A stretch of 64,000 bases of DNA from Eledone cirrhosa. Lineage: Eukaryota. Positions within the stretch are counted from its first letter, which is position 1, and every line of letters starts with the position of its first letter. The stretch covers positions 173,352,001-173,416,000 of the forward strand of contig OZ024741.1 in assembly GCA_964016885.1 (NCBI GenBank). The letters run 5' to 3'. Below are positions 1,103 through 62,990 of this stretch, in pieces. The position numbers and the translations under genes are program-made. The notes under the pieces are model-generated. The model was not told the DNA's origin. It was given only the letters and a program-made list of their open reading frames with translations, and did not search any database.

Positions 1103-1422
1103 GTCAACAGTACACTTATCATCAGTTATAGGGTGTCTCAAATATTTGCAACAGTGAACTATGTAATATCTTTCTTATTTTGATTCTCTTGGAAGGAAAG
1201 AGTTGGAATCGGTGTTATCAATGGTTTTGATTCTCTCTCTACCATTTCTGGCACTGTTTGTGGCTATATGGAGGCATTTTCGAATTATTTAGGATCTTGT
1301 GACTGTTTTATTTGATTTGTATTAAGGCTTCAGGAATATTTCATTAAACTGAGTCACTATCTAGACTCAAATCAGCTGTGTTGTGTTTGTGTTATACTGA
1401 GTCTGTATATCTGTGATTTGGA

Positions 1423-1560
<138 letters not shown>

Positions 1561-1561
1561 A

Positions 1562-2807
1562 CTATAAAGTTCTAGTATGTAGAAAGGAAAATAGGGTACA
1601 GGTACCCTCTGGGAAATGGCCATGCTCAGTGTGTAGGAAAGGAGTAGGCAGAAATTCCATATTATGTCCCAAATGCAAACTATGGGTACATAAAAGATGT
1701 AGTGGGATCACAGGTAAGCTATCTAAGAACGTAGATTTTATATGTGGCCGATGCTCAGGTGCAATAAGTAGCAAGTGCCCACAGGATACTAACTCTTTCT
1801 ATTGCCCAGATGGTTCTATAGAAATAGTGGACACCTTCCGTTACCTGGGTGACAAAATCAGCAGTGGTGGAGGGTGCTCTGAAAGTACAGTAGCCAGAGT
1901 CAGAACTGGATGGAAAAAGTTCAGAGAGCTTATACCACTATTGGCTACTAAAGGTTTCTCTCTAAAAATGAAAGGCAGATTGTATGATGCCTGTATACGA
2001 ACAGCAATGTTACATAGCAGTGAGACATGGGCTTTGTGTGCAGAGGATCTGCGCAGACTGGAGAGGAACAAAGCATCCATGCTCCGTTGGATGTGTAATA
2101 GTAATATACGCGAACGGCAAAGCATAAATGAACTAAGTGAGAAATTAGGAATAAGAGGGATCAGATGCTGTTTACTCGAGAGAAGACTACGTTGGTATGG
2201 TCACGTGATGCGCATGAAAGACGACAGTTGTATAAAAAAGTGCAGGGCGATCAAAATTAATGGAAGTTACAAGTAGGTAGACCCAGAAAAACCTGGGACA
2301 ATTTGATAAATTCCGACCTTACACACTTACACCTCTCTAAGACAATGTCACTGGACCGAGATCTTTGGCGCTACACAGTAATACAGAAGACCCGCCTTGC
2401 CTATGTACAAAGCAAAACCTACAGTCAGTAGGCACCTCTTAACCGAATATATACCCCAATCCCACTACCCCTACACCCCCACCCCTACTCCCACCAACAC
2501 CACCCTTTCTCCGTTGGTACCATAACATCCAGTCCAAAATAAATGAAGTCGTGTAGGTGTCACAACAAAAAAAACATAGTCCACGCTGTAATGTGGCTGT
2601 GTAGGTAACACGGTAGAAACCTCCCAGTCCACACTGTAAACGTGGTTGGTGTTAGGAAGACATCCAGCCGTAGAAAACCTGCCAGACAGTCCTATATGAG
2701 CGAGACATGGTCACTCGACCAATCTTGCACCAAGTAGGACAATTCCCATCTAAACCCATGCTAGCATGGAAGATAGACGTTAAACGATGATGATGATGAT
2801 AATGATG
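1562..2807 (+). mobile_element. 5'-truncated RTE-clade LINE (RT C-terminal part with PHD finger, 3' UTR, (GAT)n tail)
   Basis: ORF with [18 protein letters not shown] and GRPRKTW-type motifs typical of RTE ORF2; ends GGAAGATAGACGTTAAAC(GAT)n. Confidence 0.9.
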
Positions 2808-3606: not shown

Positions 3607-4983
3607 TCATCATCATCATCATCATCGTTTAACGTCCATCTTCCACGCTAGCTTGGGTTAGACGGTTTTGTTCCATTTGATGCGGGAATGGTTGGGAGAC
3701 CATGTCTCGGTTGTACAGAAGTGTCTCTGGCAGGTTTTTTTACAGCTGGATGCCCTTCCTAACACCAACCACATTTACAGTGTGGACTGGGAGCCTTTTT
3801 ACCGTGTCTCCTACATGATCACCTTTCAGTGTGGACTGTTGTGTCATCAACACAGTGGATCGAACAGGAAAGGGGGGGATGGGGTAGGATGTGTGGGGTG
3901 GGATGTACATTGGGTTAAGAGGTGCCTACTGACTCTAGGTTTGTATGAAAGGGAAGGCGGGTCTTCTGTACAACTGCATGGCGGCAAAGATCTTCATTGT
4001 CTTAGAGAGGTGTAAGTGAGCAAGGTCAGTTTTTATCACCTCATCCCAGGTTTTTCTTGGTGTACCTACTCCATAGCTTCCATCAATTTTCATTGCCCTG
4101 CACTTTTTTATACAGCTGTCGTCCTTCATACGCATCACATGTCCATACCAACGCAATCTCCTCTCCAGAACAAAAACATTTGACACCTCTTATGCTTAGT
4201 CTCTCTCTCAATTCATTTATGCTTCGTCATTCATGCACATTACTATTACACATCCAACCGGAGCATGCAAGCTTCATTACTTTCTAACCTATGCAAGTCT
4301 TCAGCATACAATGCCCAGGTCTCACTACCATGTAATATTGCCATTCGTATACAGGCATCATACAATCTGCCTTCACTTTTAGAGAAAAACTCCTTCTGGC
4401 CAACAGTGATATTAGCTCTCTCAATTTTTTCCATCCCGTTCTAACTCTGGCTTCTATACTTTCAGAGCACCCTCCTCCACTGCTGATTTTTTCACCCAGG
4501 TAATGGAAAGTGTCTTATTTCTATAGAACCATCTGGGCAGTTGAAGGAGATAGCATCCAGTGGGTCCTTGCTACTTACTACACCTGAGCATCGGCCACAT
4601 ATAAAATCTACATTCTTAGATAGCTTACCTGTGATCCCACTACATCTTTTATGTATCCATAGTTTGCATTTTGGACATAGAATGGAATTACTACCTACTC
4701 CTTTCTTACACACTGAGCATGGCCATTTCCCAGAGGGCACCTGTGCCCTATTCTCCTTTCTACATACTAGAACTTTAGTCTTAGATAAGTTAACTCTAAG
4801 GCCTTTTGATTCAAGGCCATGCTTCCATGTTTGGAACTTCTTCTCTAGTTCAGTCATGGATTCAGCTATGAGAGTTAGATCTGCATATAGAAGTTCCCAT
4901 GGGCAGCCAGTCTTAAACCCTTCTGTTATAGCCTTTAGGACAATAATAAACAGGAGGGGGCTAAGGATGGAGCCTTGTTGAAC

Positions 4984-4987
<4 letters not shown>
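3607..4987 (-). mobile_element. 5'-truncated, frameshifted RTE LINE
   Basis: minus-strand QGSILSPLLF, ELLYADL, PHD finger and ERRLRWYGH motifs; (CAT)n on + strand is the 3' tail; both ends abut (TA)n. Confidence 0.9.
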
Positions 4988-5016
<29 letters not shown>

Positions 5017-5405: not shown

Positions 5406-8400
5406 TCATCATCATCATCATTTTACGTCCGCTCTTCCCTGCTCGCAAGGGTGGGATGGGTCTTATTCGGCACAGCATCTCTCCACTCGTCACGGTCCTT
5501 CGTCATCTCCACCGTGAGTTTCAACGATCTGAGGTCTGTTCTCACCACCTCCGCCCACATGTTTTTCGTGGTCTACCTCACCCACGTCTTCCTTCAACTG
5601 GCATTTCCTGGTACTTCTTCACCCATCGCTCATCCTCCATGCGCATCACATGTCCATACCACCTCAGTCTCCTCTCCCGTACACTACATTCTATCCCTCT
5701 CAGACACAGTTTCTCTCTCAACACATTTATGCTGGGTCGTTCACGCACATTTACATTGCACATCCAACGGAGCATGCTTGCCTCATTTCTCTTCAGCCGT
5801 TGCATATCCTCTGCAGTTGCTGCCCATGTCTCACTACCATGCAGCATCGCGCTCCTCACACAAGCCTTTCGTACGCAGGGAGAAACCCTTCTTCGTCAGC
5901 AGAGGAAGCAGCTCGCTAAACTTCTTCCAACCCATCCTTATTCTAGATACTATGACCTCGGAACACCCTCCTCCCATGCTAATCTGATCTCCTAGGTACC
6001 GGGAGCTATCCACCACTTCTATAGCACTCTCCTGCATTTGAAAAATGTGTCTATCAATGCAACTTCTACTGTCTAATTTCCCTGTACATCTACTGCATAC
6101 ATATTTCTCCCTTACCCAGGATCTGCATTGTGTGCATTTTATAGAATTTATGCCAGTTCCTTTTCTGCGTATCAAACATGGCCATTTCCCTGACGGAATC
6201 AGAGTTTTGTCCTCTTTTCTACTCATCAACACTTTTGTCTTAGCTAGGTTCACTCTCAGTCCTCTTGCTTCCAACTGCTGTTTCCATAGCCAGAATTTAT
6301 TCTCTAGCTCCTCTACTGATTCTGCTATAAGAACCAGATCATCAGCATAGAGAAGTTCCCATGGACAGCCAGTCTTAAACTCCTCTGTTATGGCTTGGAG
6401 GACTATAATGAACAAGAGCGGGCTGAGAACCGAACCTTGATGTACTCCTACTTATATCTGGAATTCCTCACTAAACTCCATTCCTACCCTTACTTTAGTG
6501 AGAGTACCTCTGTACAAAGTTTGCACTATCCTCACAAGCCATTCCTCAACACCTAGTTTCCTTAGGGACCACCAGATGGCAGATCGGGGTACCCTATCAA
6601 AGGCCTTCTCTAAGTCAACAAAGGCTAAGTATAGTGACTTATTTTTCTCTAAGAACCTCTCTTGCAATTGTCTCACCAAGAAGAGGGCATCTGTTGAACT
6701 CTTCCCAGGCACAAAACCAAACTGCATCTCATCTAGTTTTACCCTTTCTCTAATTAGTTGTGTTAATATCCTTTCTGCCACTTTCATAACCTGATCCATC
6801 AGTTAACCCCTATAATTGCTCCACTTTGTAGCAATTTATGAGAATACTGCTGCACCAGTCTTTGGGTATGACACCACCATATATAGCCTGATTGATGATG
6901 TGTGCAACCAGTTTAGTGCCTACGTCCCCTGATGCCTTCAGCATCTCAGCAACTATTCCCGATGGTCCAGCAGCCTTACCATTTTTCATTTCCTTAATCG
7001 CCTCTTGGACCCTATATTCGTCAATCTCAATAGCTGGTCCCTCTGTCAGATCTACTAAGGGTAATTTCTCTCTCTCCCATTCGTTCTCCACATTCATCAG
7101 TCTCTCATAATGACATTTCCAGGCCTCCTTTTTCAGATCATTCGTGACACTAAGTACACCGGCATCATCCCGGACCCACTTATCTCCAACAACATCCTGA
7201 TTTGCATTGACACACTGTCTGCAATGTGGAACACCGCATGCCTCTGATCTTCCCGTCGCAGAACATTGGCAAACCTCCTACTCTTAGCCTCCCTGTGTGC
7301 TAAGTACACCTGATGTCTAGCTTCTCTCTTAGCGGCTGTATATTCTTCCCTACTCCCACCCTTTTTCCAAGCCTTCCATGCTAGTCTTTTGTCTCTAATG
7401 GCCTTATCTACTGTGCTGTTCCACAACCAGGTTACTCTCTGTCTGGTTGGAGCTCTGCTCCAGCCACAAGTTTCATCAGTAGCCTGCAGCAAGTTGTCAC
7501 GTAAGAAATTCCAGTTATTTTCTATGTCATACGTCTCTAAATCGTCTTCTTTTTCGTCATATACATCTTGAAGGGCTTTCCTAAATTTGTATTTTAGTGA
7601 AAGGTCTTTTAGCTTCCAGACCTTTCTTTTCCACACCTTCCTGTATGTCTCATTCCATCTCTTGCTTACTGAGATATCACTAATGACTAACCTATGCTGT
7701 GGGGTACATTCTTCCCCAGGGTATGCCTTGGTATTAGACACTATCTGCCTGTCCCGCTGCCTAACTAGTAAGAAGTCAATCTGGCTTATGTGCTCACCAG
7801 ATTTGTAGGTTATTAGGTGATTGGCAGGTTTCTGGAAGTTTGTGTTGCAAATATTCAGTGTACTTGCATCACAAAATTCAAGATGTCTCATTCCTTCTTC
7901 ATTTCTTGAGCCGTAACCGTGCTCACCATGTACCCCAGTGTAACCATCCTGGAGCTGTCCAACATGACCATTGAAGTCCCCCTGCTAGCATAACGATGTC
8001 TCTGTCCTCTGTCATTGCGGTTGTTTGTAAAAGTTGCTCGTAAAAGCAGTCTTTCTCATCTTTGCCTAGGCCTGCTTGGGGAGCATAGGCAGAGATGATT
8101 GTCAGTAGTCTCCTGCCTACAACTAATCTAAGCTTAATCATTCGATTACTAACTCAAACTTCCTCTATTGTCTTATTGATCCATCTCTCAGTCAGGAAAA
8201 TGCCTACTCCCCCTAACCCATCATCCTTACCTACCCAGAAAAGCTTATAGCTAAGATGTTTGCCTGCGACTAGTCTCGCAGAGGCACCTCTCCATCTCAC
8301 CTCTTGCACGCAGCACACATCCACATGCCTTCTCTCCAGCATCTCCGCTATTTCAGCAGATCTACCTCTGAGAGTGCAAACATTAAGTGTTGCAGCTCTG

Positions 8401-25176: not shown

Positions 25177-28100
25177 CTAGCAGAAGTGCCCGGCGTTGCT
25201 CGGAGTTTAATTGCTTTAAAGTACTTTTAATGATTCCACTCAATTATGATTATTGAAAGTAAATACGGGTAAGTTTGAAAATATACAACAATAGCATCTA
25301 CTCACTATATGTCAGACCAGCAAGACTGTAGTGGTGCTGAATAGAGGAGTCACAACACCTCTCTGTAGACCACATTTTTTATTCTGCCTTTGGGCGCAAG
25401 TATGAATAATTTCTGCTTGCATCCCACTCTTCAGCATGCGACCTATAATTGGCCGTGTGAGAAGCACGGCTGGGCTAAATGCAGGCCTGCTGTTGATAGC
25501 GTTTGGCCTTGGGACTTGTTGATTGACATCGCGAAGCAAAGTTTAACGGGGAATTGAAGTCGGCGCAGAGTACAGGGGCATTCCGTACCTGATGGAGTTA
25601 ATGGTATTCTGCGTGTGAAGACGTTTTCTCCAGCGCCACAGCCCATGAGAATTGTGGCTTCAATTACAGGCGGCAGGAGGTTTCTTACCACTAACCGTGT
25701 TCCGTTGCAGAGACGTGGTGGTTCCAGGTTCCTCAACAGCATCACTGGAGTCCCAACTTTGACGCGCAGTTCATGAGGTGGCAGTCCAGAGAGGTTGAAG
25801 GAATTGAGGAATTCTGTGAGAAAATCGTCAACCTCATCTGTGTCCACCACTTTGTCCACAGATTTGTAGGTACGGAGGTTTCCAGGAATGCGTTGCAGAA
25901 GGCCCTTATTGATTTTTGCAATAGAGACATTTTTGGGAGCCAATATGGCTCTATCGCACAGCCAACTCGTGTTTTTGTAGTTGATGGCCATATTGGGAAA
26001 GACAGAGGCTGTGAGGTCGTCAACAGGGTCGACAACGGTGCCTACTTACGAGACTGCCATTTCTCCAGCTGCATCTGAAGGTGCAGTGCCGTCACCAACT
26101 GTTAAGAGGTCCTTTGAGCAGTCGGCTGATGAGAGGTCGCCGAGCAGTTGGGCTCTCATGTTTGTTGTGAGGGTCAGGATTGTCACTTCCTTCCACAGGG
26201 GAGATGACTTAATGCAAGCCCCCACAGTGTCGGCCCTGGTGGCTTTTGGAACAACTGGAAGAGTTTGTTGGAAATCGCCAGACAGCAGTAGAGCTACTCC
26301 TCCCATCGGCCGGCTGCATTCCCTGATGTCTCGTAGGGTCCTGTCTAACGCCTCAAGGGACCCTTTATGGGCCATTGTGCATTCGTCCCACAAATTAGGT
26401 GCCATCTTTTCAAGACTTCCGCTTTGTCAGAGTCCTTGGTGATGTTGCAGGTTATTGTCGTCTGAAGTCGTGTTGAATGGCAGTTTAAATGCGGAATGAG
26501 CTGTCCTACCTCCGGGCAGCAGAGTTGTGGCAATCCCAGAAGAAGCCACAGGCAGGGTGATTCTTTTTTGCTGTCGCACTTTGGTGGCCCGCCATTGGTC
26601 CTGCAACAATTTCGGCTCGTTTTCATTGATGAACAGTTCGAGGCCGTGGACGTCGTAGGCAGTTTCCTGAATTATGCCTGTCGGAAGTTTGTTGGAGCCC
26701 GTTCGCTGAACTTTTGGCAGTCCATAGAATGGAAGGTCATTTCCGCCGGCAGTTAGGATTTTGTCCTCGATGTCAATGAGATCATCGCTGAGTCGTACGT
26801 CGGAATGAGGGAGTAGCAGTTGTCCTTGCTGTATGTAGTCATCAGAAAGGTCTTCTTTGTATTTGTCCCATAAGGATGCAGGGTCGCTTAACTCGCATGT
26901 CTGCAGTAGCACCGCAAAGAGTTGCCGAAGAGTTCGTGCTGAGCGTATTGTAGCTGCCTCCGCCAATGTTGCATCCCACTGAATGCCATCTTCCAGTAGA
27001 CCCCGTCTAAGGCAGGCTGCGCGGAATGAAGTACAACCCTCTCCGTTGATTGTTTTCAGATCGTCGAAAGATGTCAGTCCTACCACTTCATGCAGTAGAA
27101 GGCGGAGATAAAAGCCTTCCTGTTGGTTAGGATGAATGGTGTACACTCTCCCAAGGGTAGGGGACATTTTAATGTCTGGATGTCCCTCAACGGATTGTCC
27201 TTTCACCCTTCTTAACCAAATTCTGTTGTCTGTGTTCCATGTGTAGTATGATGGCACCTGAGAGTAGAAGAGGGTCTTGGCGAAGGGATCGTTTCGGCAT
27301 AACTTAAAAAATGCCGTAAGTGTCGTGTCCTTGGGTTCCTCTGCTATCTCAGCAGCGGTGGAGGTGGTGAAGTAGACTCTTTGACCGTTTTCAAGGTGGA
27401 CTGCCAACTGTTTACATAATAGGTCAAACCTGTAAGCCAAGCCCGTCTGAGTTATAGCACAAAAGAGCATAAACAGGGGCGATATTTTGGAGCACACTGG
27501 AAAATAAATCATCGAAATTGGAGGTTCCTGAAAAAAGTTTTCTCATTATTTTTTTGTCTCATATTGCAAAAAACAGAAAAAAATTACAAAAAGGACAACA
27601 ATAAAATATAATGTCTTTGTTGAGATTCAAGTAAATGAATGCTTAAGCGTCGTTATGATTATGTTTGTTGTTTTATAAATTCATCTGTTGCTTTTGAATA
27701 TTTGTTATTTGATGTATAATGTAACGTTGAGAGAGGAGTATGTATTTAGTGTTATCGGCTTTTTAAGTTTTGTTATTTGATGTATGAGCGTCGTTATGAC
27801 TATGTTTGTTGTTGTATAAAATGATGTGTTGCTTAGTTATCAAAGTTTATTTCGCGTTCCTGGACGAAGAAGGGGAATGATCTATTATAGAGAGAGGGAA
27901 GAGCGACAACGAGAGTAAAGCTAAGAAACCATAAGGAGGTGTGTTAAACCTCGAAGCATGAAGAGAGTAAAGCAGTTAAATTATAGAGAGGGGGAATAAT
28001 CTATTTTAGAGAGAGGGAAGAGCGATGGAGAGAGTAAAGCTATTTTTGTTGTTGTATAAATTGATGTGTTGCTTAGTTTTCAAAGTTTGTGTTGCGTTCC

Positions 28101-36881: not shown

Positions 36882-39414
36882 ACTAATTGACAAGCTAAAT
36901 TAGCATGATGTAACATGTGTCAAGTTTGGCCTTTTGAATTACAGATACAGTCCACTTGGTGGGGATCCAAATAGGTTCTGTTTACCAAATTTCAGTCCTA
37001 AGATATGGGTCAACTCCAGGCTATGGTAAATAACATGTGCCCAAGATGACATGCAGTGGGATCAAACCCAAGGCTTAATGTTTACAAAGCAAACGTCTTA
37101 ACCATTTGACTATGCTGTGTCCACAATTGCAAACTTAGAAATCATGTCACACACATTTTCAAGCTAATAAGAATCCCAGAAAATGGATTGTTTCTTTAGA
37201 ATTACTCGATCAATATGTGATAAATAGATAATGGCGATAATGGATAATTTGGTTCTATTTTAACTATCGATATTATTGGCATGAGATGATGATGATGATA
37301 ATGAGATAGCTAACTCATTGAATTTGCTCAGATAATGCCCTATGTGTAATGTATGAAATATAGTAACAGCTTGTTGATGAGATCTGAAATTATGCGGTTC
37401 ATATATGATACAGCCTGTAAATATAACTTTCAATAACAGTCTGTAGATGTTAACTGAATGAATTTTCTTCGACATATTGTGTCAGACAAGAACTGCTAAT
37501 TTCTTTTACTTCATTCAAACCAATTTGACAGAGTCACACCTAGCCACACCTCTAATCAATGCATATAAATGACTAAAGTGGCTGCCAATATACTTAATGT
37601 ATTTAGCAAAAGAAAATATAATTAAAAGTACATGCTTAGTAATGACAACTGTCATTATCTAAACGACTAATTCTGTCAAAAACAGCAAGGGAAGACAACC
37701 CTGAAATTTTAATATAATTGTTTCTACTTTAGGCACAAGGCCAGCAATTACCCAGTACATTACTGGTACTTTATTTTATCGACCCCCGTAAGGATGAAAG
37801 GCAAAGTTAACCTAATATAATGCAACATGGAGTGTATCTGATTCTTAGAAGTTTGGTGACAATTCTGGACATGATTTTTCTTATTGGACCTTATCAGCAA
37901 ACCATAATTTAACCATGGCTATTAGATCTTAGAATGACTAGAGGGAGATATAAGTTACTTGTGAATGAAATCTGAGTGGCATAATAACTTAAAAGAATGA
38001 CAAGGTAAAATTAATTAGAGATATCTGCTGCATGGAAACTTAATAATATACAGAGTTTACATACAAGAGTTAAATTCAGCATTGCAAGATAATGCACTTA
38101 TTAATTTTACTATGCTGTGACAACATAGAATTGAAGCCTCTCATGAAAAACCTATTGGATAATGTTGACCTTGAGACATTATGCTTGGAATCAAATAATG
38201 ATTGGAACATCTGCAATTATATGTCTACTTGAACAAAGCTGATATGGGTCTATATAACAACAATAGCAACAACAGCAATGGTACCAAGAACAATGACAAC
38301 AACAACAATAATGGTAGTATTTTGGTCACAAATATAAAGCAGAATCAGTAAAATAATATGTGCCAAATTTTGGGCCGATTATCGGCTAGCATCAGGCATC
38401 TGTACATACCTAGGTATATATGAAATATATATGAGCAAGATCTGGTTCATAGATAACATGGCCAACCCATGTCAGCTGGGAAAACGGATTTTAAAATGAT
38501 GATGATGATGATGAGGATGATGATGATTGCGATATGTGCTTGTCTTTCTGGTTAATCAGTTTTAGCATTGTCTAGAAAGAGTAGTGATAATGAGTGCTAT
38601 CACTGTTTATGTTATACAATATTTTGATTATTATAAAGGGTAGCAGAAATGGCAATATCAGTAGGATGTTCGACAAAATGCTTTTCAGTATTTAGTAGGC
38701 TTGCTATGTTCTGAGTTCAAATCCTGCTTGAGGAGGTCAACTTTGCTTTTCATCCTTCTGAGTTCAATAAGATCAAATAGCCATCAAACACCAGGGTCAA
38801 TATTATTAACCTCTCCTACCACCCACAAGAAATATTGCTGGCCTTGTCTTGTGCTAAAATTATAAAGCATTATTTTTATTACTATACAAGATCCCTGCAA
38901 GTCAAGATAAACAAGCCTAGGTGTGCTGAAGAAAGCAGTGTTTCAGGCATCTCTTTTAGTTCCTTCACCACAAGACATAAATATGTGTCTTCCTATAGAA
39001 AGTTGCTCAGTTCAATTGCTGCTTCAGTTAGTAGATGACCAATATCTTGAGTTGTCAGTATACAGGTTTATAGAGGCAGCTGGTGTAGCTGTCAGTATGC
39101 AGTTCATAACTGCAGCTGTCAGTGTGCGGGTTTATGGATGCAGCTGCCAATGTATCCACACTTGCTAATTTGTCATTTTGCCATTATTTCAGAACCTGGG
39201 TTTACCTTTTGGCAGTTTAGATCCAAAGTTGTAACTTGTATATGATGCATAGCCTCATCAACACTCATACTGAATCAGCTAGACCCAGTGGTAAGACAGT
39301 GATAAGTAATCAAGATGATTTGGGATGTGACTGGATGTAGGGCTTCATGGAGGCTTTGGCTGAATTAGACAGGAAAACACCAATCTCACCCCACACACTG
39401 TAGAATACTAAATA

Positions 39415-44375: not shown

Positions 44376-44698
44376 TTTACGTCCGCTTTTCCCTGCTTGC
44401 AAGGGTGGGACGGGAACTGATTCTGGCTTGATTTCTACAGCTGGATGCCCTTCCTAACACCAACCTCATTTACAGTGAGTGCTGGGTGCTTTTTTACCAT
44501 GGCACCTCCACGACCACTTTGCAGTGGAATGATATGGACCCCAGTCCCTATCATCTCATTTCTACAGCTGAGTAAACTGGAGCAATGTGAAATAAAGTGT
44601 CTTGCTCAAGAAAACAACACATCACCCGGTCTGAGAATTGAACTCACAACCTATCAATTGCAAGGCCAATGCTCTAACCACTAAGCCATGTGCCTCCA
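44346..44698 (-). mobile_element. full-length CORE-like SINE with RTE tail
   Basis: near-identical reverse complement of 9476-9823. Confidence 0.88.
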
Positions 44699-44718
44699 TC
44701 TATATATATATGTATATA

Positions 44719-45560
44719 TCATCATCATCATCATCGTTTAACGTCCGTGTTCCACGCTTGCATGGGTTTGGACGGAGGGTTTTCCCACTTGAGGCAAGAG
44801 TGGTTATCTTGCTCGCATAGGACTATCTGGCGGGTTTTCTACAGCTGGATGCCCTTCCTAACACCAACCACATTTACAGTGTGGGGCTGGGAGGTTTTTA
44901 CCATGTTGCCTACACGGCCACATTACAGCGTGAACTGTGTGTTTTTTTTTACGTGACACCTACACGATCTCATTTGTTTCGGCCTGGATGTTGTGGCACC
45001 AACATAACTTTACATTGAAAGGGGCGGTGTGGATGGGCTGGGGGTGGTGGGACGGGGTGTATTTTGTTAGAGATGCCTACTGACTGTAGTAGGTTTTACT
45101 TTGTATTTAGGTAAGGCGGGTCTTCTCTATTACTGAGTACCGCCAAAGGTCTCTGTCCAGTGACATTGTCTTGGTGAGGTGTAAGTGTGTGAGGTCGGAA
45201 TTTATCAGCTCGTCTCAGGTTTTTCTGGGTCTGCCTATTCCGTGGCTACCGTCTATCTTTATTGCCCTGCACTTTGTTATACAGCTATCGTCCTTCATGC
45301 GCATCACGTGACCATACCAACGTAGCCTTCTCTCGAGTAAACAACATCTGATCCCTCTTATTTCTAATTGTTTCCTTAGTTCGTTTATGCTTTGCCGTTC
45401 ACGTATATTACTATTACACATCCAGCGGAGCATGCAAGCTTCGTTTCTCTCTAGTCTGCGTATATCCTCTGCACACAATGCCCAGGTCTCACTGCCATGC
45501 AACATTGCTGTTCGTATGCAGGCATCGTACAACCTGCCTTTCATTTTTAGGGAGAACCCT
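44719..45560 (-). mobile_element. 5'-truncated RTE LINE
   Basis: [36 protein letters not shown], 3' UTR and (CAT)n tail; flanked by (TA)n. Confidence 0.9.
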
Positions 45561-45645
45561 ATATATATATAATTGTTTCTACTTTAGGCACAAGGGCAGC
45601 AATTACCCAGCTATATATATATAATGTTATATATATACATCTATA

Positions 45646-45886
45646 TAGGTGTCACAACAAAAAAACACACAGTCCACACTGTAATGTGGCCGTGTAGGTA
45701 ACACGGTAAAAACCTCCTAGTCCACACTGTAAACGTGGTTGGTGTTAGGAAGGGCATCCGGCCGTAGAAAACCCGCCAGACAGTCCTATGCGAGCAAGAC
45801 AACCACTCTTGCCTCAAGTGGGAAAACTCCCATCCAAACCCATGCAAGCGTGGAAGATGGACGTTAAACGATGATGATGATGATGA
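45646..45886 (+). mobile_element. RTE 3' UTR fragment
   Basis: matches 2555-2800; (GAT)n tail. Confidence 0.8.
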
Positions 45887-45898
45887 TATATATAGCTG

Positions 45899-45936
<38 letters not shown>

Positions 45937-45948
45937 CATATACATACA

Positions 45949-46775
45949 GACGCAATGAATTCTCGACAGTTGGATTACGTAACTGTCTTTATCCCATTGC
46001 AGAAACTAATTAGTTGGAGTGAAAATTTAAGTAAGTAAAAAATTTAAAAAAATTTTTTTTTTTTTTAAAGATATTTTCTTATTTTACGTCTTTTATATTA
46101 TTGTTCTGCATTCTCCTGCATTGAACCACCTAGGTACTATGACATAACCTGTGTATTTGCTAGCATGGGCGTGCATCTGTGCGCTTATGTTAGTTGATAT
46201 ATTAAATTATCTATATTTATCTCCAAATCACTGATTTGTCGAGCAAACTTGCCAAAACCACTTCTAAAAAAATTTTTTTTGGGGTGTTAGTAGGCGTCAG
46301 TCATCTTACCATCCCATTCCTTCTAACTAGCCTCTGTGTCACGTGATTGATTCTTTAGAATCGGCCATTTGACTTGAAGCAGTGAGAATTTCGGTACATA
46401 GAATCCAGTCCTCGCAAGCTGTTCGATCTACCGAATTATTATTATTTTTATATGAGCCGCCAGTGTCCGCGCATTGCCTGGAGACTTAACTGAGAATAGA
46501 CTCCCTGATGACGCAATGAATTCTCGACAGTTGGATTACGTAACTGTCTTTATCCCATTGCAGAAACTAATTAGTTGGAGTGAAAATTTAAGTAAGTAAA
46601 AAATTTAAAAAAAAATTTTTTTTTTTTTTTTTAAAGATATTTTCTTATTTTACGTCTTTTATATTATTGTTCTGCATTCTCCTGCATTGAACCACCTAGG
46701 TACTATGACATAACCTGTGTATTTGCTAGCATGGGCGTGCATCTGTGCGCTTATGTTAGTTGATATATTAAATTA

Positions 46776-46780
<5 letters not shown>
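45949..46780 (+). mobile_element. ~1.5-unit tandem (561-bp period) Penelope pLTR/retrozyme-like element
   Basis: 45949-~46215 repeated at 46510-~46780 almost identically; flanked by (TA)n; carries a hammerhead. Confidence 0.8.
46500..46581 (+). ncRNA. type I hammerhead ribozyme, intact core
   Basis: ACTCC-CTGATGA-C-GCAATG..GACAGTT/AACTGTC..CATTGC-A-GAAAC-TAATTA-GTT-GGAGT; stem I ACTCC/GGAGT; palindromic stem III CTAATTAG. Confidence 0.8.
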
Positions 46781-46817
<37 letters not shown>

Positions 46818-48594: not shown

Positions 48595-49320
48595 TCTGAT
48601 GGTTAATATTTGATGTTCATATTCATTTGTCTACTACCTATGAAATATTCCAGATTCCTTGATTGTTAATGGCTGGGGCACCTATTAATTTGTCTACTTC
48701 CTATGATATGCACTAAATTCTTTGATGGTTGATGGCTGGGTCAACTATTAATTTGTCTACTTCACATATGTACAAAATTCTTTGATGGCTAATGGTTGGA
48801 ATCCTATTAATTTGTCTACTTCCTATATGTACTAAATTCTTTGATGGCTAATGGTTGGGGCTCCTATTAATTTGTCTACTTCCTATATGTACTAAATTCT
48901 TTGATGGCTAATGGTTGGGGCTCCTATTAATTTGTCTACTTCCTATATGTACTAAATTCTTTGATGGCTAATGGTTGGGGCTCCTATTAATTTGTCTACT
49001 TCCTATATGTACTAAATTCTTTGATGGCTAATGGTTGGGGCTCCTATTAATTTGTCTACTTCCTATATGTACTAAATTATTTGATGGCTAATGGTTGGGG
49101 CTCCTATTAATTTTTCTATTTCCTATATGTACTAAATCCTTTGATGGCTAATGGTTGAGGCACCTATTAATTTGTCTACTTCCTATAATATATACCAAAT
49201 TCTTCAATGGTTAATGTTTGAGTTCCTATTTATTTGTCAGGTTCTTATGGAATAATACACATTATTTGATGGTTAATGGATTGGGCTCCTTTTGTTTTGT
49301 CTACTTTCTATGATATGTTT
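48595..49320. repeat. 60-bp minisatellite, ~12 copies
   Basis: unit TTGATGGCTAATGGTTGGGGCTCCTATTAATTTGTCTACTTCCTATATGTACTAAATTCT, near-identical across 48841-49080 and diverged at the edges. Confidence 0.95.
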
Positions 49321-53184: not shown

Positions 53185-54410
53185 TTCTGTTGGGAGGTTT
53201 AGTTTCTTAAGGTCAGTCTTCACAACCTCATATCATGTCTTCCTGGGTCTACCTCTTCCATTTGTCCCAGAAACTGGGGTTTCCCTGCATTTCTTTATGA
53301 AGCTGTTAGCTTCCATGTGCATCACAGGTTCTCACCAATGCAGTCCCTCTCTTGCATACTACAGCCAATTTCTTTTCTCTCAACTTGCTTATGCTATGTT
53401 ACTCATGCACACTAGCATACTCGACTCCTTTCTTTCTAGCCACTGCAGGTCTGCTGCAGTCAAGGCCTATGTTTCACTGCCATGTAACATTGTAGTTTAC
53501 ACACAAGCATCATACAGTCTACCATTCACTCTGAGAGAAAAGCATTTTGTTATTAGAACTGGTAATAGATCTCTAAGCTTCTCACATTCTGTTCTTACCT
53601 TAGCTATTACACTTTTGGCGCATCCTTCCCTACTACTAATTTGATTGCTTAGGTAGCAAAAGCTGTCAACAACTTCTATGGAGCCCACTTGGCAGCTGAA
53701 GGAATCTATTTCATGTATGCTCTTTGTGCTCACTTCCTCGGTGCATCTGCTGCATGTAAAGTATATCTTTTCTGTTAGCCTGCCTGCAATCCCACTCCAC
53801 TTCTTGTGTGTCCATAGATTCCATTGAGTCCATCTTATGGAATTTCTGCCCACCCCTTTCTGAGATATTGAACAAGGCAATTTCCCTGATGGCATAATCT
53901 TCCTGTATTCTTCCCTACTTATTAGGACTTTTGTCTTTGCTATATTTTCTTTTAGACCTTCTAAATCTAGGTTCTTCTTCCATGCTTGAAATTTTGCCTC
54001 CAATTCTCCTACAGATTCAGCTATGAGGACTAGGTCATTAGTGTATAGGAGCTGCTATGGAGTGCCAGTTTTAAACTCCTCAGTGATGGCCTGAAGCAGG
54101 ATGATAAATAAGAGTGGGCTGAGGACTGATCCCTGGTGTACTCCCACATGCACTTCAAATTCATCACTGTACTCATTGCTAACTCTCACTCTGCTGGTTA
54201 CTCCTCTATACATGGTCATCACAAGCCATTCGTCTACACCTAACTTCCTGAGTGCCCACCTGATTATAGAGTCTGGAACCCTGTCAAAGGCTTTCTCTAG
54301 ATCCACAAATACTTAGCAACTGTCCTGTAGTTGTCTCACAAGAAAAAGTGCACTGGTGGTACCCCTCCCTGACAAAATTCCAAACTGCATCTCATCTTAC
54401 TTGATTCTTT
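53185..54410 (-). mobile_element. decayed RTE LINE (RT half)
   Basis: DLEKAFDRV, GVHQGSVLSPLLF, degenerate PHD finger, FCYL, GRLYDACV. Confidence 0.88.
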
Positions 54411-61619: not shown

Positions 61620-62990
61620 ACTTTTCCATATCATTCTTTGTTATTCACTGCTGTTAATAGTCCAGAACTTTTCTCTATATTCGGGCTGTTCACAGTAGAC
61701 ATGTCTTCTGGAGCAGTTCAATCCCTGGTACAAAAGCTATTTTCGGCAGGTAGTTTTCAGGGTTCTTTATCACCACTGGGACAATGGTGACTGTCTTCAC
61801 TTCATTACTCCAGCATTTCAAAATCTTGTATTTTAAGTCAGTATAAGCCCCTACTTTCTCCATCTCTTTTTGTTCAATTCTGATGTAGAAAGGACGTGCT
61901 ATATCTATGAGAGTACAGTTTCTCTTCTTTTTCTCAATTACATCAATATCTGGTTTGTTGTGTTCAATCTTCATCTGGGTTTGAATTAGGAAGTCTGATA
62001 AGACCTTTATCTTATCATTCTCTAGCACTCTCATCTCATTTGTGATACCATGTTCATAGCTTTTTTCTGCACATGAAAATCCATTCTATTTACACAAGCT
62101 CCAGTGCAACATGCTAACGACCTTATCATATCTGCCGTTTATTTTAATAATCATTCTGGGCTAACTGCTTACACTCTGAAACGATATGGGTTACCCATAT
62201 CGTTTCAGGTAACAAGTTCTGCATTCAGCTTGAATATCTTTCTTGTCTATATTTCTCATTACCTACCTTGTTTTTATGTCTTGATCTAATATAAGTCCTT
62301 CAATTTTTTCTTAATGTAGCCTTTCCAAGTATTTTTGTTATCACACATGTTTTTATGTCTTGATCTAATATAAGTCCTTCAATTTTTTCTTAATGTAGCC
62401 TTTCCAAGTATTTTTGTTATCACACATGTTTCTTGTTTCCTTAATGAATGCTGAATCATCAAATGCTTTTTCCCTCTTCAGGAATCACAGTCTTTGTGTT
62501 TTCTGCATCTCCATTTGTCTCAAATATGTCTCCCCTGATAACTGCCAATCTAAACTTTTCTTTCTTATTTTTTATGTAGAATCCCATACCACTTTCTTCT
62601 ATTTTGACAGCATCCCATCCTGTACTATCAGTAATCCCCTATCTACCTCCTTTCTTTTCCCATGCAACCTGTCTACATCACCTTGTGGGTGCATATTTCG
62701 ATAGATAGTGAGCATTTTCCTTGTTTTCCGATCAATTTCCTTCAACTCTACATTTATCTATTCTACTATACCTGCCCCATACCTAATTAATGAAACAGTT
62801 CTGGTTTTTATCGCCTACACAGTATTTACACCATTCAAACTGGACTTGAGTGCTCATACCACTGGCTTACTCTTTTGCAGCTGTATTTTCCATATAACTG
62901 CCAATGACTGATTTTTGTATTCTTTGTGTCGGCTGGTGATATGTTACACAGTTTCTCCCTTTTCTCAACATATCCTACACTTTTCTGGGT
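61620..62990 (-). mobile_element. decayed R4/Dong-like non-LTR retrotransposon (restriction-like endonuclease)
   Basis: HNKPDIDVIEK..LIDIARP..EKV..Y.DL..W..VPVV (PD-D RLE), HPQGDVDRL..GGR thumb motif, CRIC..ETV.HI zinc knuckle. Confidence 0.75.
62270..62432. repeat. 79-bp perfect tandem duplication
   Basis: TTTTATGTCTTGATCTAAT...CACACATGT repeated at 62272 and 62351. Confidence 0.9.

Follow-up and report, generated by a model that had tools for sequence, protein, structure and literature searches.

Two kinds of described elements come closest to the insertion analyzed here, namely metazoan non-LTR retrozymes and Penelope-like elements (PLEs). A link between the two has already been argued in a 2026 preprint (10.64898/2026.07.22.740005), and the published systems are compared here on the basis of parts of the cited sources. 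Retrozymes of coral, mussel, and axolotl accumulate as circles (PMC7229834), and eight of nine Xenopus retrozyme dimers displayed no cleavage in vitro (10.64898/2026.07.22.740005). For a PLE of the anole, an internal start of reverse transcription downstream of the ribozyme was shown; in vitro, cleavage was unnecessary and uncut RNA was the dominant substrate (PMC11167929). As the origin of the partial tandems of Penelope elements, circular RNA has been proposed (PMC4209133, PMC7229834), whereas uncut linear RNA is favored in vitro (PMC11167929).

Among PLEs, the Hydra clade is of particular relevance. In the tables covered, 26 of its 27 families target (TA)n, one of them being from Octopus bimaculoides (Hydra-1_Obim); all listed ribozymes have a helix III of 3-4 bp, and counting by eye gave a mismatch at the base of helix II in 15 of 26 and a cut after U in 10 of 26 (PMC8557442). 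Naiads also target (TA)n in octopus; the part of the literature covered describes them as having no canonical ribozymes and as having been inactive for a long time in cephalopods. No description of a cephalopod retrozyme was found in the open literature (Repbase, Dfam, subscription journals, and paper supplements may list the family), and the covered part of the giant squid paper gives only a count of 235 Rfam hammerheads.

The insertion described below very probably belongs to a PLE-type retrozyme family. The family is short, lacks ORFs, and is apparently recent; its 3′ end is fixed, its ribozyme complete, and a candidate partner clade can be named, which makes it well suited for testing the circular against the linear template. 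With it, retrozymes would reach into cephalopods, and one of them would be tied to a named PLE clade outside vertebrates.

Structure of the insertion

The insertion lies in a window of 64 kb (the whole stretch of DNA that was analyzed). Its features are as follows:

45886-45948 (no strand): left target, (TA)n next to a (CATA)n microsatellite, directly preceded by an unrelated SINE-like repeat with a (GAT)n tail
45949-46782 (+): whole insertion, ~833 nt or 1.48 units of a 561-base unit; truncated 5′ within the core of the ribozyme and ending 3′ in TA microhomology (46777-46782)
45949-46216 (+): copy 1 of the repeat (pseudo-LTR-like)
46016-46576 (+): predicted cut-to-cut monomer, 561 nt, 36% GC
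46151-46202 (+): 23-bp hairpin with nine G.U pairs, directly 5′ of the element 3′ end; second copy at 46717-46768
46217-46509 (+): unique body between the repeats, 293 nt, no ORF
46484-46593 (+): complete type I hammerhead of copy 2
46492-46525 (+): predicted 6-bp pseudoknot, GAGAAU 46492-46497 (5′ of helix I) with AUUCUC 46520-46525 (internal loop of helix II)
46510-46782 (+): copy 2 of the repeat, extending ~205 nt beyond the cut up to the recurrent 3′ end of the family
46778-46815 (no strand): right target, (TA)n

A reading made from the sequence alone had described a near-identical direct repeat with a period of 561 bp, flanked by TA and free of ORFs, and all of this was borne out. Copies 1 and 2 align without a single substitution; their sole difference is a homopolymer (A7T14 versus A9T17), so that the period is 561 upstream and 566 downstream of it. 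The sequence-only reading had placed the 3′ end at 46780. This position falls within the range of 46777-46782, but the exact end is ambiguous, since the element's TATAT (46778-46782) fuses with the flanking (TA)n. No target-site duplication was discernible at the insertion, the locus contains neither a tail of 30-40 nt nor an inverted 5′ segment (both optional in PLEs), and no further copies of the unit were found within the 64-kb window.

Copy 1 contains helix II, GAAAC, the palindrome, the predicted cut site after 46015, the 3′ strand of helix I, an A/T tract, and the 3′ hairpin. As had been pointed out previously, it begins inside the core (GA|CGCAATG), and neither CUGAU nor the 5′ strand of helix I is present in it. 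The repeat is a circular permutation rather than an LTR with ends of its own.

No reading frame of the insertion, the circularized monomer included, stays open for more than 48 codons, and the longest ATG-started frame of the circularized monomer on both strands has 27 codons. This frame (46516-46599, +) has its ATG within helix II and crosses the ribozyme; an equally long one occurs on the minus strand, which places it within chance. In the anole PLE, the ORF likewise starts at stem II (PMC11167929). Continuous translation around the circle (561 = 3 × 187) was considered and rejected, as no frame is open beyond the 48 codons.

The hammerhead ribozyme

The complete hammerhead of copy 2 consists of the following parts (all on the plus strand):

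46500-46504/46577-46581: helix I, ACTCC with GGAGT, 5 bp
46505-46511: CTGATGA (CUGAUGA)
46513-46518/46556-46561: helix II, 6 bp followed by a 7×7 loop and 8 bp
46563-46567: GAAAC
46567-46574: perfect palindrome CTAATTAG; the palindrome of helix III is given as 10-12 nt
cut after 46576 (predicted): GUU triplet; copy 1 counterpart after 46015

A strict hammerhead descriptor returned a single match in the window, the one in copy 2, in agreement with the hammerhead and cut site predicted earlier; it had no match in 100 dinucleotide shuffles of the 64 kb (both strands) or in 5000 shuffles of the unit. Three more matches to a loose descriptor in the window failed the strict one and were rejected. 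Rfam did not recognize the hammerhead at the gathering threshold or at E ≤ 10, and the matches that it returned were AT-repeat noise. Helix II has a C.A mismatch at its base (46512/46562); neither this mismatch nor the predicted pseudoknot is part of the sequence-only reading.

Folding energies and probabilities given here are predictions that ignore the pseudoknot. When copy 2 was folded alone (RNAfold), helices I and II formed, and helix III had a probability of only ~0.11. An outer extension of helix I (46484-46489/46588-46593) is complementary, yet its predicted probability was ~0.01, and it was discarded. For the predicted pseudoknot, 1709 of 100,000 loop shuffles reached at least 6 bp in a test devised once the match had been seen. 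Relative to shuffles, the monomer folded more stably on the plus strand (z = −3.35) than on the minus strand (z = −1.69).

The intact core of copy 2 had also been suggested to pair with copy 1 and to cut there. In the fold of the whole insert, the palindrome duplex is predicted with P ~0.64, but helix I across the copies with P of only ~0.08. A constrained crossed fold (copy 2 as enzyme, copy 1 as substrate) reached −212.1 kcal/mol, compared with −209.8 kcal/mol for the own fold and −214.9 kcal/mol for the minimum free energy (MFE). The active folds thus differ from the predicted minimum, the crossed one lying 2.8 kcal/mol and the own fold 5.1 kcal/mol above it. The crossed 'dimer' fold is therefore energetically plausible as a prediction. 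In the circular monomer, helix I was mostly unformed (P 0.07); the models predict a ribozyme that would be on in multimers and off in the circle.

By eye, four features of the ribozyme agree with the PLE consensus: CUGANGA is followed by an extra base, G10.1-C11.1 is present, helix III is palindromic, and the cut at GUU is a frequent one. The ribozyme is of the PLE type and most closely resembles those of Hydra-clade PLEs.

A repeat family in public sequencing runs

The sequence-only reading had named a single-copy unit or an assembly artefact as the case that would speak against it; the unit proved to be multi-copy in public runs. Parts of it occur in 20 of the 24 listed runs, and six contain at least half of its words. 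A share of at least 0.24 was found in 11 of the 24 listed runs (eight organisms, seven studies); nine runs with shares of 0.04-0.17 were kept out of the evidence. The six runs recorded as RNA contain only 0.04 of the unit's words. Four runs (X1, X4, X9, and X24), three of which belong to the 11, were aligned to one permuted monomer (46095-46660, of which 46594-46660 was left out of the alignment). Matches at 80-100% identity comprised 1083 contigs in X1, 36 in X9, 31 in X4, and 7525 raw reads in X24. X9 holds 88 million letters of unrecorded library type; RNA editing as a sign that it is RNA was rejected, the spectrum of changes not being distinctive.

In two X9 contigs, the unit gives way to (TA)n at 46212 and 46220, corresponding to the end of the window copy (46782 minus 566); one of these contigs (record 17) has 16 differences in 108 letters. 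Five listed contigs cross the 3′-end point (X1 record 3, X4 records 9 and 10, X9 records 18 and 19), others span the predicted cut, and the unit is covered continuously over both. Diverged copies either share this 3′ end in (TA)n or continue beyond it, which makes the partial tandem a trait of the family. Together with the multi-copy unit and the anatomy of the ribozyme, this agrees with the earlier suggestion of a retrozyme or PLE-type partial tandem.

In each of the three contig runs, the part from the ribozyme to the 3′ end had about twice the depth of the body (1.99, 1.93, and 2.15), which fits short partial tandems or 5′-truncated copies rather than long arrays. Summed contig depth is a crude measure, as stronger divergence of the body could lower its depth, and contigs are unable to reveal ends or circles. 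In X24, piles of read ends (46205, 46208, 46271, 46434, 46437, and 46522) were rejected as element boundaries. All six are edges of AATT sites, although one adjoins the true 3′ end; they are thus a restriction artefact of a reduced-representation library, and the X24 depth profile was rejected as well.

Only one of the 40 listed variants (138 in all) falls into the ribozyme (46490-46593), where 8.3 were expected (P = 0.001). The body (46217-46509) is the most variable part among the family copies, some of which have internal deletions. Over 46490-46589, the deepest X4 contig matches the window letter for letter, and hence neither the C.A mismatch nor GUU is a private change; as the deepest X4 contigs match the window completely, they may stem from the same species or source and are not independent.

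Further variants were observed. Joints in X9 (46356-46555, 46367-46463, and 46369-46462) correspond to copies with 198, 95, or 92 nt of the body missing; in the first of them, most of the ribozyme would be gone. Loose ends in X4 before 46541 and 46542 look by eye like sister hammerheads with a different 5′ strand of helix II; both retain the extra C and the TTCTC loop, and are likely, from these letters, to represent related subfamilies. A pattern scan of metagenome contigs yielded six loci, all without helices I-II or wider similarity and hence attributed to chance, and a scan of viral contigs gave no matches.

The 3′ hairpin

The hairpin next to the 3′ end folds only on the plus strand, i.e. 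that of the ribozyme (z = −4.19 versus +0.38), and is a candidate recognition site for the reverse transcriptase (RT). Eight variants, among the 40 listed of 138, affect its paired positions: six keep the pair via a one-sided change and two break it, which favors conservation of the hairpin weakly. Two-sided compensatory changes were not seen among the same 40 variants. Judged from sequence, the scarcity of variants in the ribozyme and the strand-specific hairpin point to selection acting on RNA.

Surroundings of the insertion

The window is repeat-rich animal sequence with RT, PHD, and PIF1 remnants. Decayed LINE copies with a PHD finger after the RT lie at 1401-2276 (+), 4492-5016 (−), 5578-7984 (−), 45215-45583 (−), and 53497-54054 (−). 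For one of these RTs, the best named relative is from Octopus bimaculoides (61%), which suggests an octopus-like host genome; the combination of RT and PHD is common to many relatives, and we take the element to be of the RTE type. An inverted pair of SINE-like repeats (44698-44948 and 45659-45907, up to 95% identity over 106 nt) surrounds a LINE fragment directly left of the insertion and is a possible source of double-stranded RNA and read-through transcription. Other observations comprise (i) broken PIF1 helicase frames at 25443-27542 (−), probably a Helitron remnant; (ii) a weak tRNA match (30.7 bits) at 37048-37118 (−), probably the head of a SINE; (iii) a 60-bp minisatellite of 10.9 copies with a homogeneous core at 48654-49311; and (iv) a frame of 131 aa at 61690-62085 (−) without Pfam match, which by eye resembles the C-terminal restriction-like endonuclease of site-specific non-LTR elements. 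Domains of PLE RT or GIY-YIG were not present among the 11 ORFs scanned of the 56 in the window.

Origin of the insertion

In the copy itself, 205 nt lead to the cut junction, followed by the full 561 nt, the junction again, and another 67 nt; it stops at the base of helix II, and the predicted junction is crossed twice. A cut linear monomer cannot template such an insertion without template jumps, whereas a circle or an uncut multimer can. Reverse transcription of a circular or multimeric RNA, as originally proposed, is thus supported as far as the partial tandem goes, but DNA cannot tell a circle from an uncut multimer.

We give about an even chance to the explanation that the family, many-copy and non-coding, is a non-autonomous retrozyme that uses the RT and endonuclease of a PLE, probably of the Hydra clade, and is copied from a 561-nt RNA circle. 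A transcript with two ribozyme halves would pair via the palindromic helix III, and cuts at the GUU sites 46015 and 46576 would free the monomer. Closure of this monomer by a host ligase would follow, judging by coral, mussel, and axolotl retrozymes; in its predicted fold, the circle has the ribozyme switched off. The PLE protein would then nick (TA)n, and reverse transcription would start internally, ~205 nt past the cut, beside the G.U hairpin. As the half ribozyme of copy 1 could be cut by copy 2, the 1.5-mer could regenerate the monomer.

The circle has its closest competitor in a template that was never cut, i.e. a read-through transcript of a tandem master copy in the same non-autonomous PLE-type family, with a ribozyme that is weak or assisted by protein. 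The DNA product would be the same and is explained equally well. Support comes also from the anole PLE, which mainly uses uncut RNA and for which the covered text reports no reads starting or ending at the cut site (PMC11167929), from the mostly inactive Xenopus dimers (10.64898/2026.07.22.740005), and from metazoan PLE ribozymes being described as poor cleavers. However, such a template needs two intact cut sites arranged exactly where the palindrome duplex is predicted (P ~0.64), and conservation within the unit is highest in the ribozyme. Because of this conservation, the predicted switch between multimers and circle, and the circles reported for coral, mussel, and axolotl retrozymes, we favor the circle and consider the uncut multimer possible, albeit the less probable of the two.

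It is unlikely that the insertion is the terminal repeat (pLTR/3′ UTR) of an autonomous PLE, inserted as truncated tandem ends and with truncated autonomous copies accounting for the depth of the family. The ribozyme is of the pLTR type, and several X9 contigs enter the unit from at least 255 letters of other sequence (30 letters of these are visible). Against this, the body of 293 nt between the repeats has no ORF, contigs run continuously over the 3′-end point and the cut, and two of the X9 loose ends resemble by eye the unit's own motif at 46225-46245, suggesting deletion variants. We see very little room for two further accounts. One invokes a retrozyme-like RNA mobilized by a LINE other than a PLE, either of the RTE type or of the R4/Dong type. 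R4/Dong-type LINEs target microsatellites, and RTE-type remnants are plentiful in the window, their SINEs lying in TA tracts as well. Neither a 3′ sequence nor a (GAT)n tail is shared with any repeat of the window, however, and the partial tandem, the internal 3′ end, and the type of ribozyme are PLE traits. The other account, equally improbable, assumes that one inserted monomer was partly duplicated on the spot at the DNA level, or that the assembly is in error. The copies are identical save for the homopolymer, and microsatellites on both flanks could confuse an assembly; but two organisms have diverged family copies with the read-through junction 46216/46217, the 2:1 depth ratio holds across the family, and a conserved ribozyme is not created by an artefact.

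Returning to the RNA circle, a more far-reaching version is rather doubtful at present. It holds that the family is young, present in high copy number in several cephalopod species, and made up of viroid-like RNA circles that would parasitize Hydra-clade Penelope elements. A pseudoknot-stabilized hammerhead would be off in the circle and on in multimers, the G.U hairpin would fix the start of reverse transcription, and the half ribozyme of 1.5-unit insertions would be cut by the intact one, so that truncated copies still make circles. If true, rolling-circle reverse transcription, which has yet to be proven as the source of Penelope partial tandems, would be recorded directly in the genome by thousands of insertions whose 3′ end is fixed and whose 5′ ends vary.

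Comparison with known systems

Hydra-clade PLEs share with the insertion the (TA)n target, a ribozyme near the 3′ end, the mismatch at the base of helix II, the 3-4-bp helix III, and the frequent U at the cut, and the clade is present in octopus (PMC8557442). They differ in that the insertion has no ORF and a much longer helix II, and the distance from the start of the motif to the 3′ end is ~300 nt, compared with ~90-210 nt in most listed Hydra families (PMC8557442). The exact C.A mismatch occurs, among the listed PLE ribozymes, only in PLE-X1 of Chara (PMC8557442). Hydra-1_Obim carries a ribozyme that is different in sequence and nearer its 3′ end (PMC8557442); Hydra is therefore a candidate for the partner clade. 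Two short motifs of the ribozyme were absent from the part of the supplement covered (Craig et al. 2021, PMC8557442).

The window copy lacks the ORF with RT and GIY-YIG that marks an autonomous PLE of this clade; it displays the arrangement of a non-autonomous one, i.e. a 5′-truncated copy followed by a full unit and a fixed 3′ end. Neptune is another conceivable partner clade. Like the non-autonomous Chlamys PLEs (MRC1), the insertion is ORF-less, has pLTRs and a head-to-tail arrangement, and lies in microsatellites; in contrast, the Chlamys elements are mostly without hammerheads and have 3′ ends in common with a known autonomous partner (PMC8557442). The Poseidon element PAc of the anole (Frangieh et al. 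2024) likewise combines a ribozyme upstream of an internal RT start at a stem-loop with an AT-rich target, but it is autonomous, its ribozyme is minimal and protein-assisted, and its start lies in an AC-rich stem-loop with a tail of 30-40 nt (PMC11167929).

As in metazoan non-LTR retrozymes, a type I hammerhead sits in a non-coding head-to-tail unit with a GC content below 50% (36% for the monomer) and many copies, and the palindromic helix III is suited to dimer cleavage (PMC7229834; 10.64898/2026.07.22.740005). Axolotl HHR_Amex2 likewise has a mismatch at the base of helix II (PMC7229834; 10.64898/2026.07.22.740005). At 561 nt, the unit compares with lengths of 170-400 nt among tested invertebrates (Cervera and de la Pena 2020, PMC7229834) and of 51-972 nt in the 2026 survey (Li, Clavereau and Pollet, 10.64898/2026.07.22.740005). 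Unlike these retrozymes, the family is dispersed in (TA)n and has a PLE-type core and a long two-part helix II (PMC7229834; 10.64898/2026.07.22.740005); moreover, a predicted Watson-Crick pseudoknot replaces the canonical contact between loops 1 and 2 reported for them. Copies with at least two consecutive complete ribozymes are termed active in the 2026 survey; as the insertion has one complete and one 5′-truncated ribozyme, this copy is not among them, a verdict on the copy and not on the family. Plant LTR retrozymes, which are defined by a type III hammerhead, paired LTRs, and a 4-bp target duplication, are different: the hammerhead here is of type I, and no duplication is discernible.

Pseudoknots were predicted in ~40% of hammerheads, human C10orf118 included (PMC3088659). 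As in the pseudoknotted hammerheads (Perreault et al. 2011), Watson-Crick pairs would join stems I and II, whereas the predicted partner here is the internal loop of a long helix II in a type I ribozyme of the repeat type (PMC3088659). What the family offers through its predicted pseudoknot, Hydra-like core, and fixed 3′ end is a useful test case rather than a surprise: this kind of element is already known from other animals, and the family is an added member.
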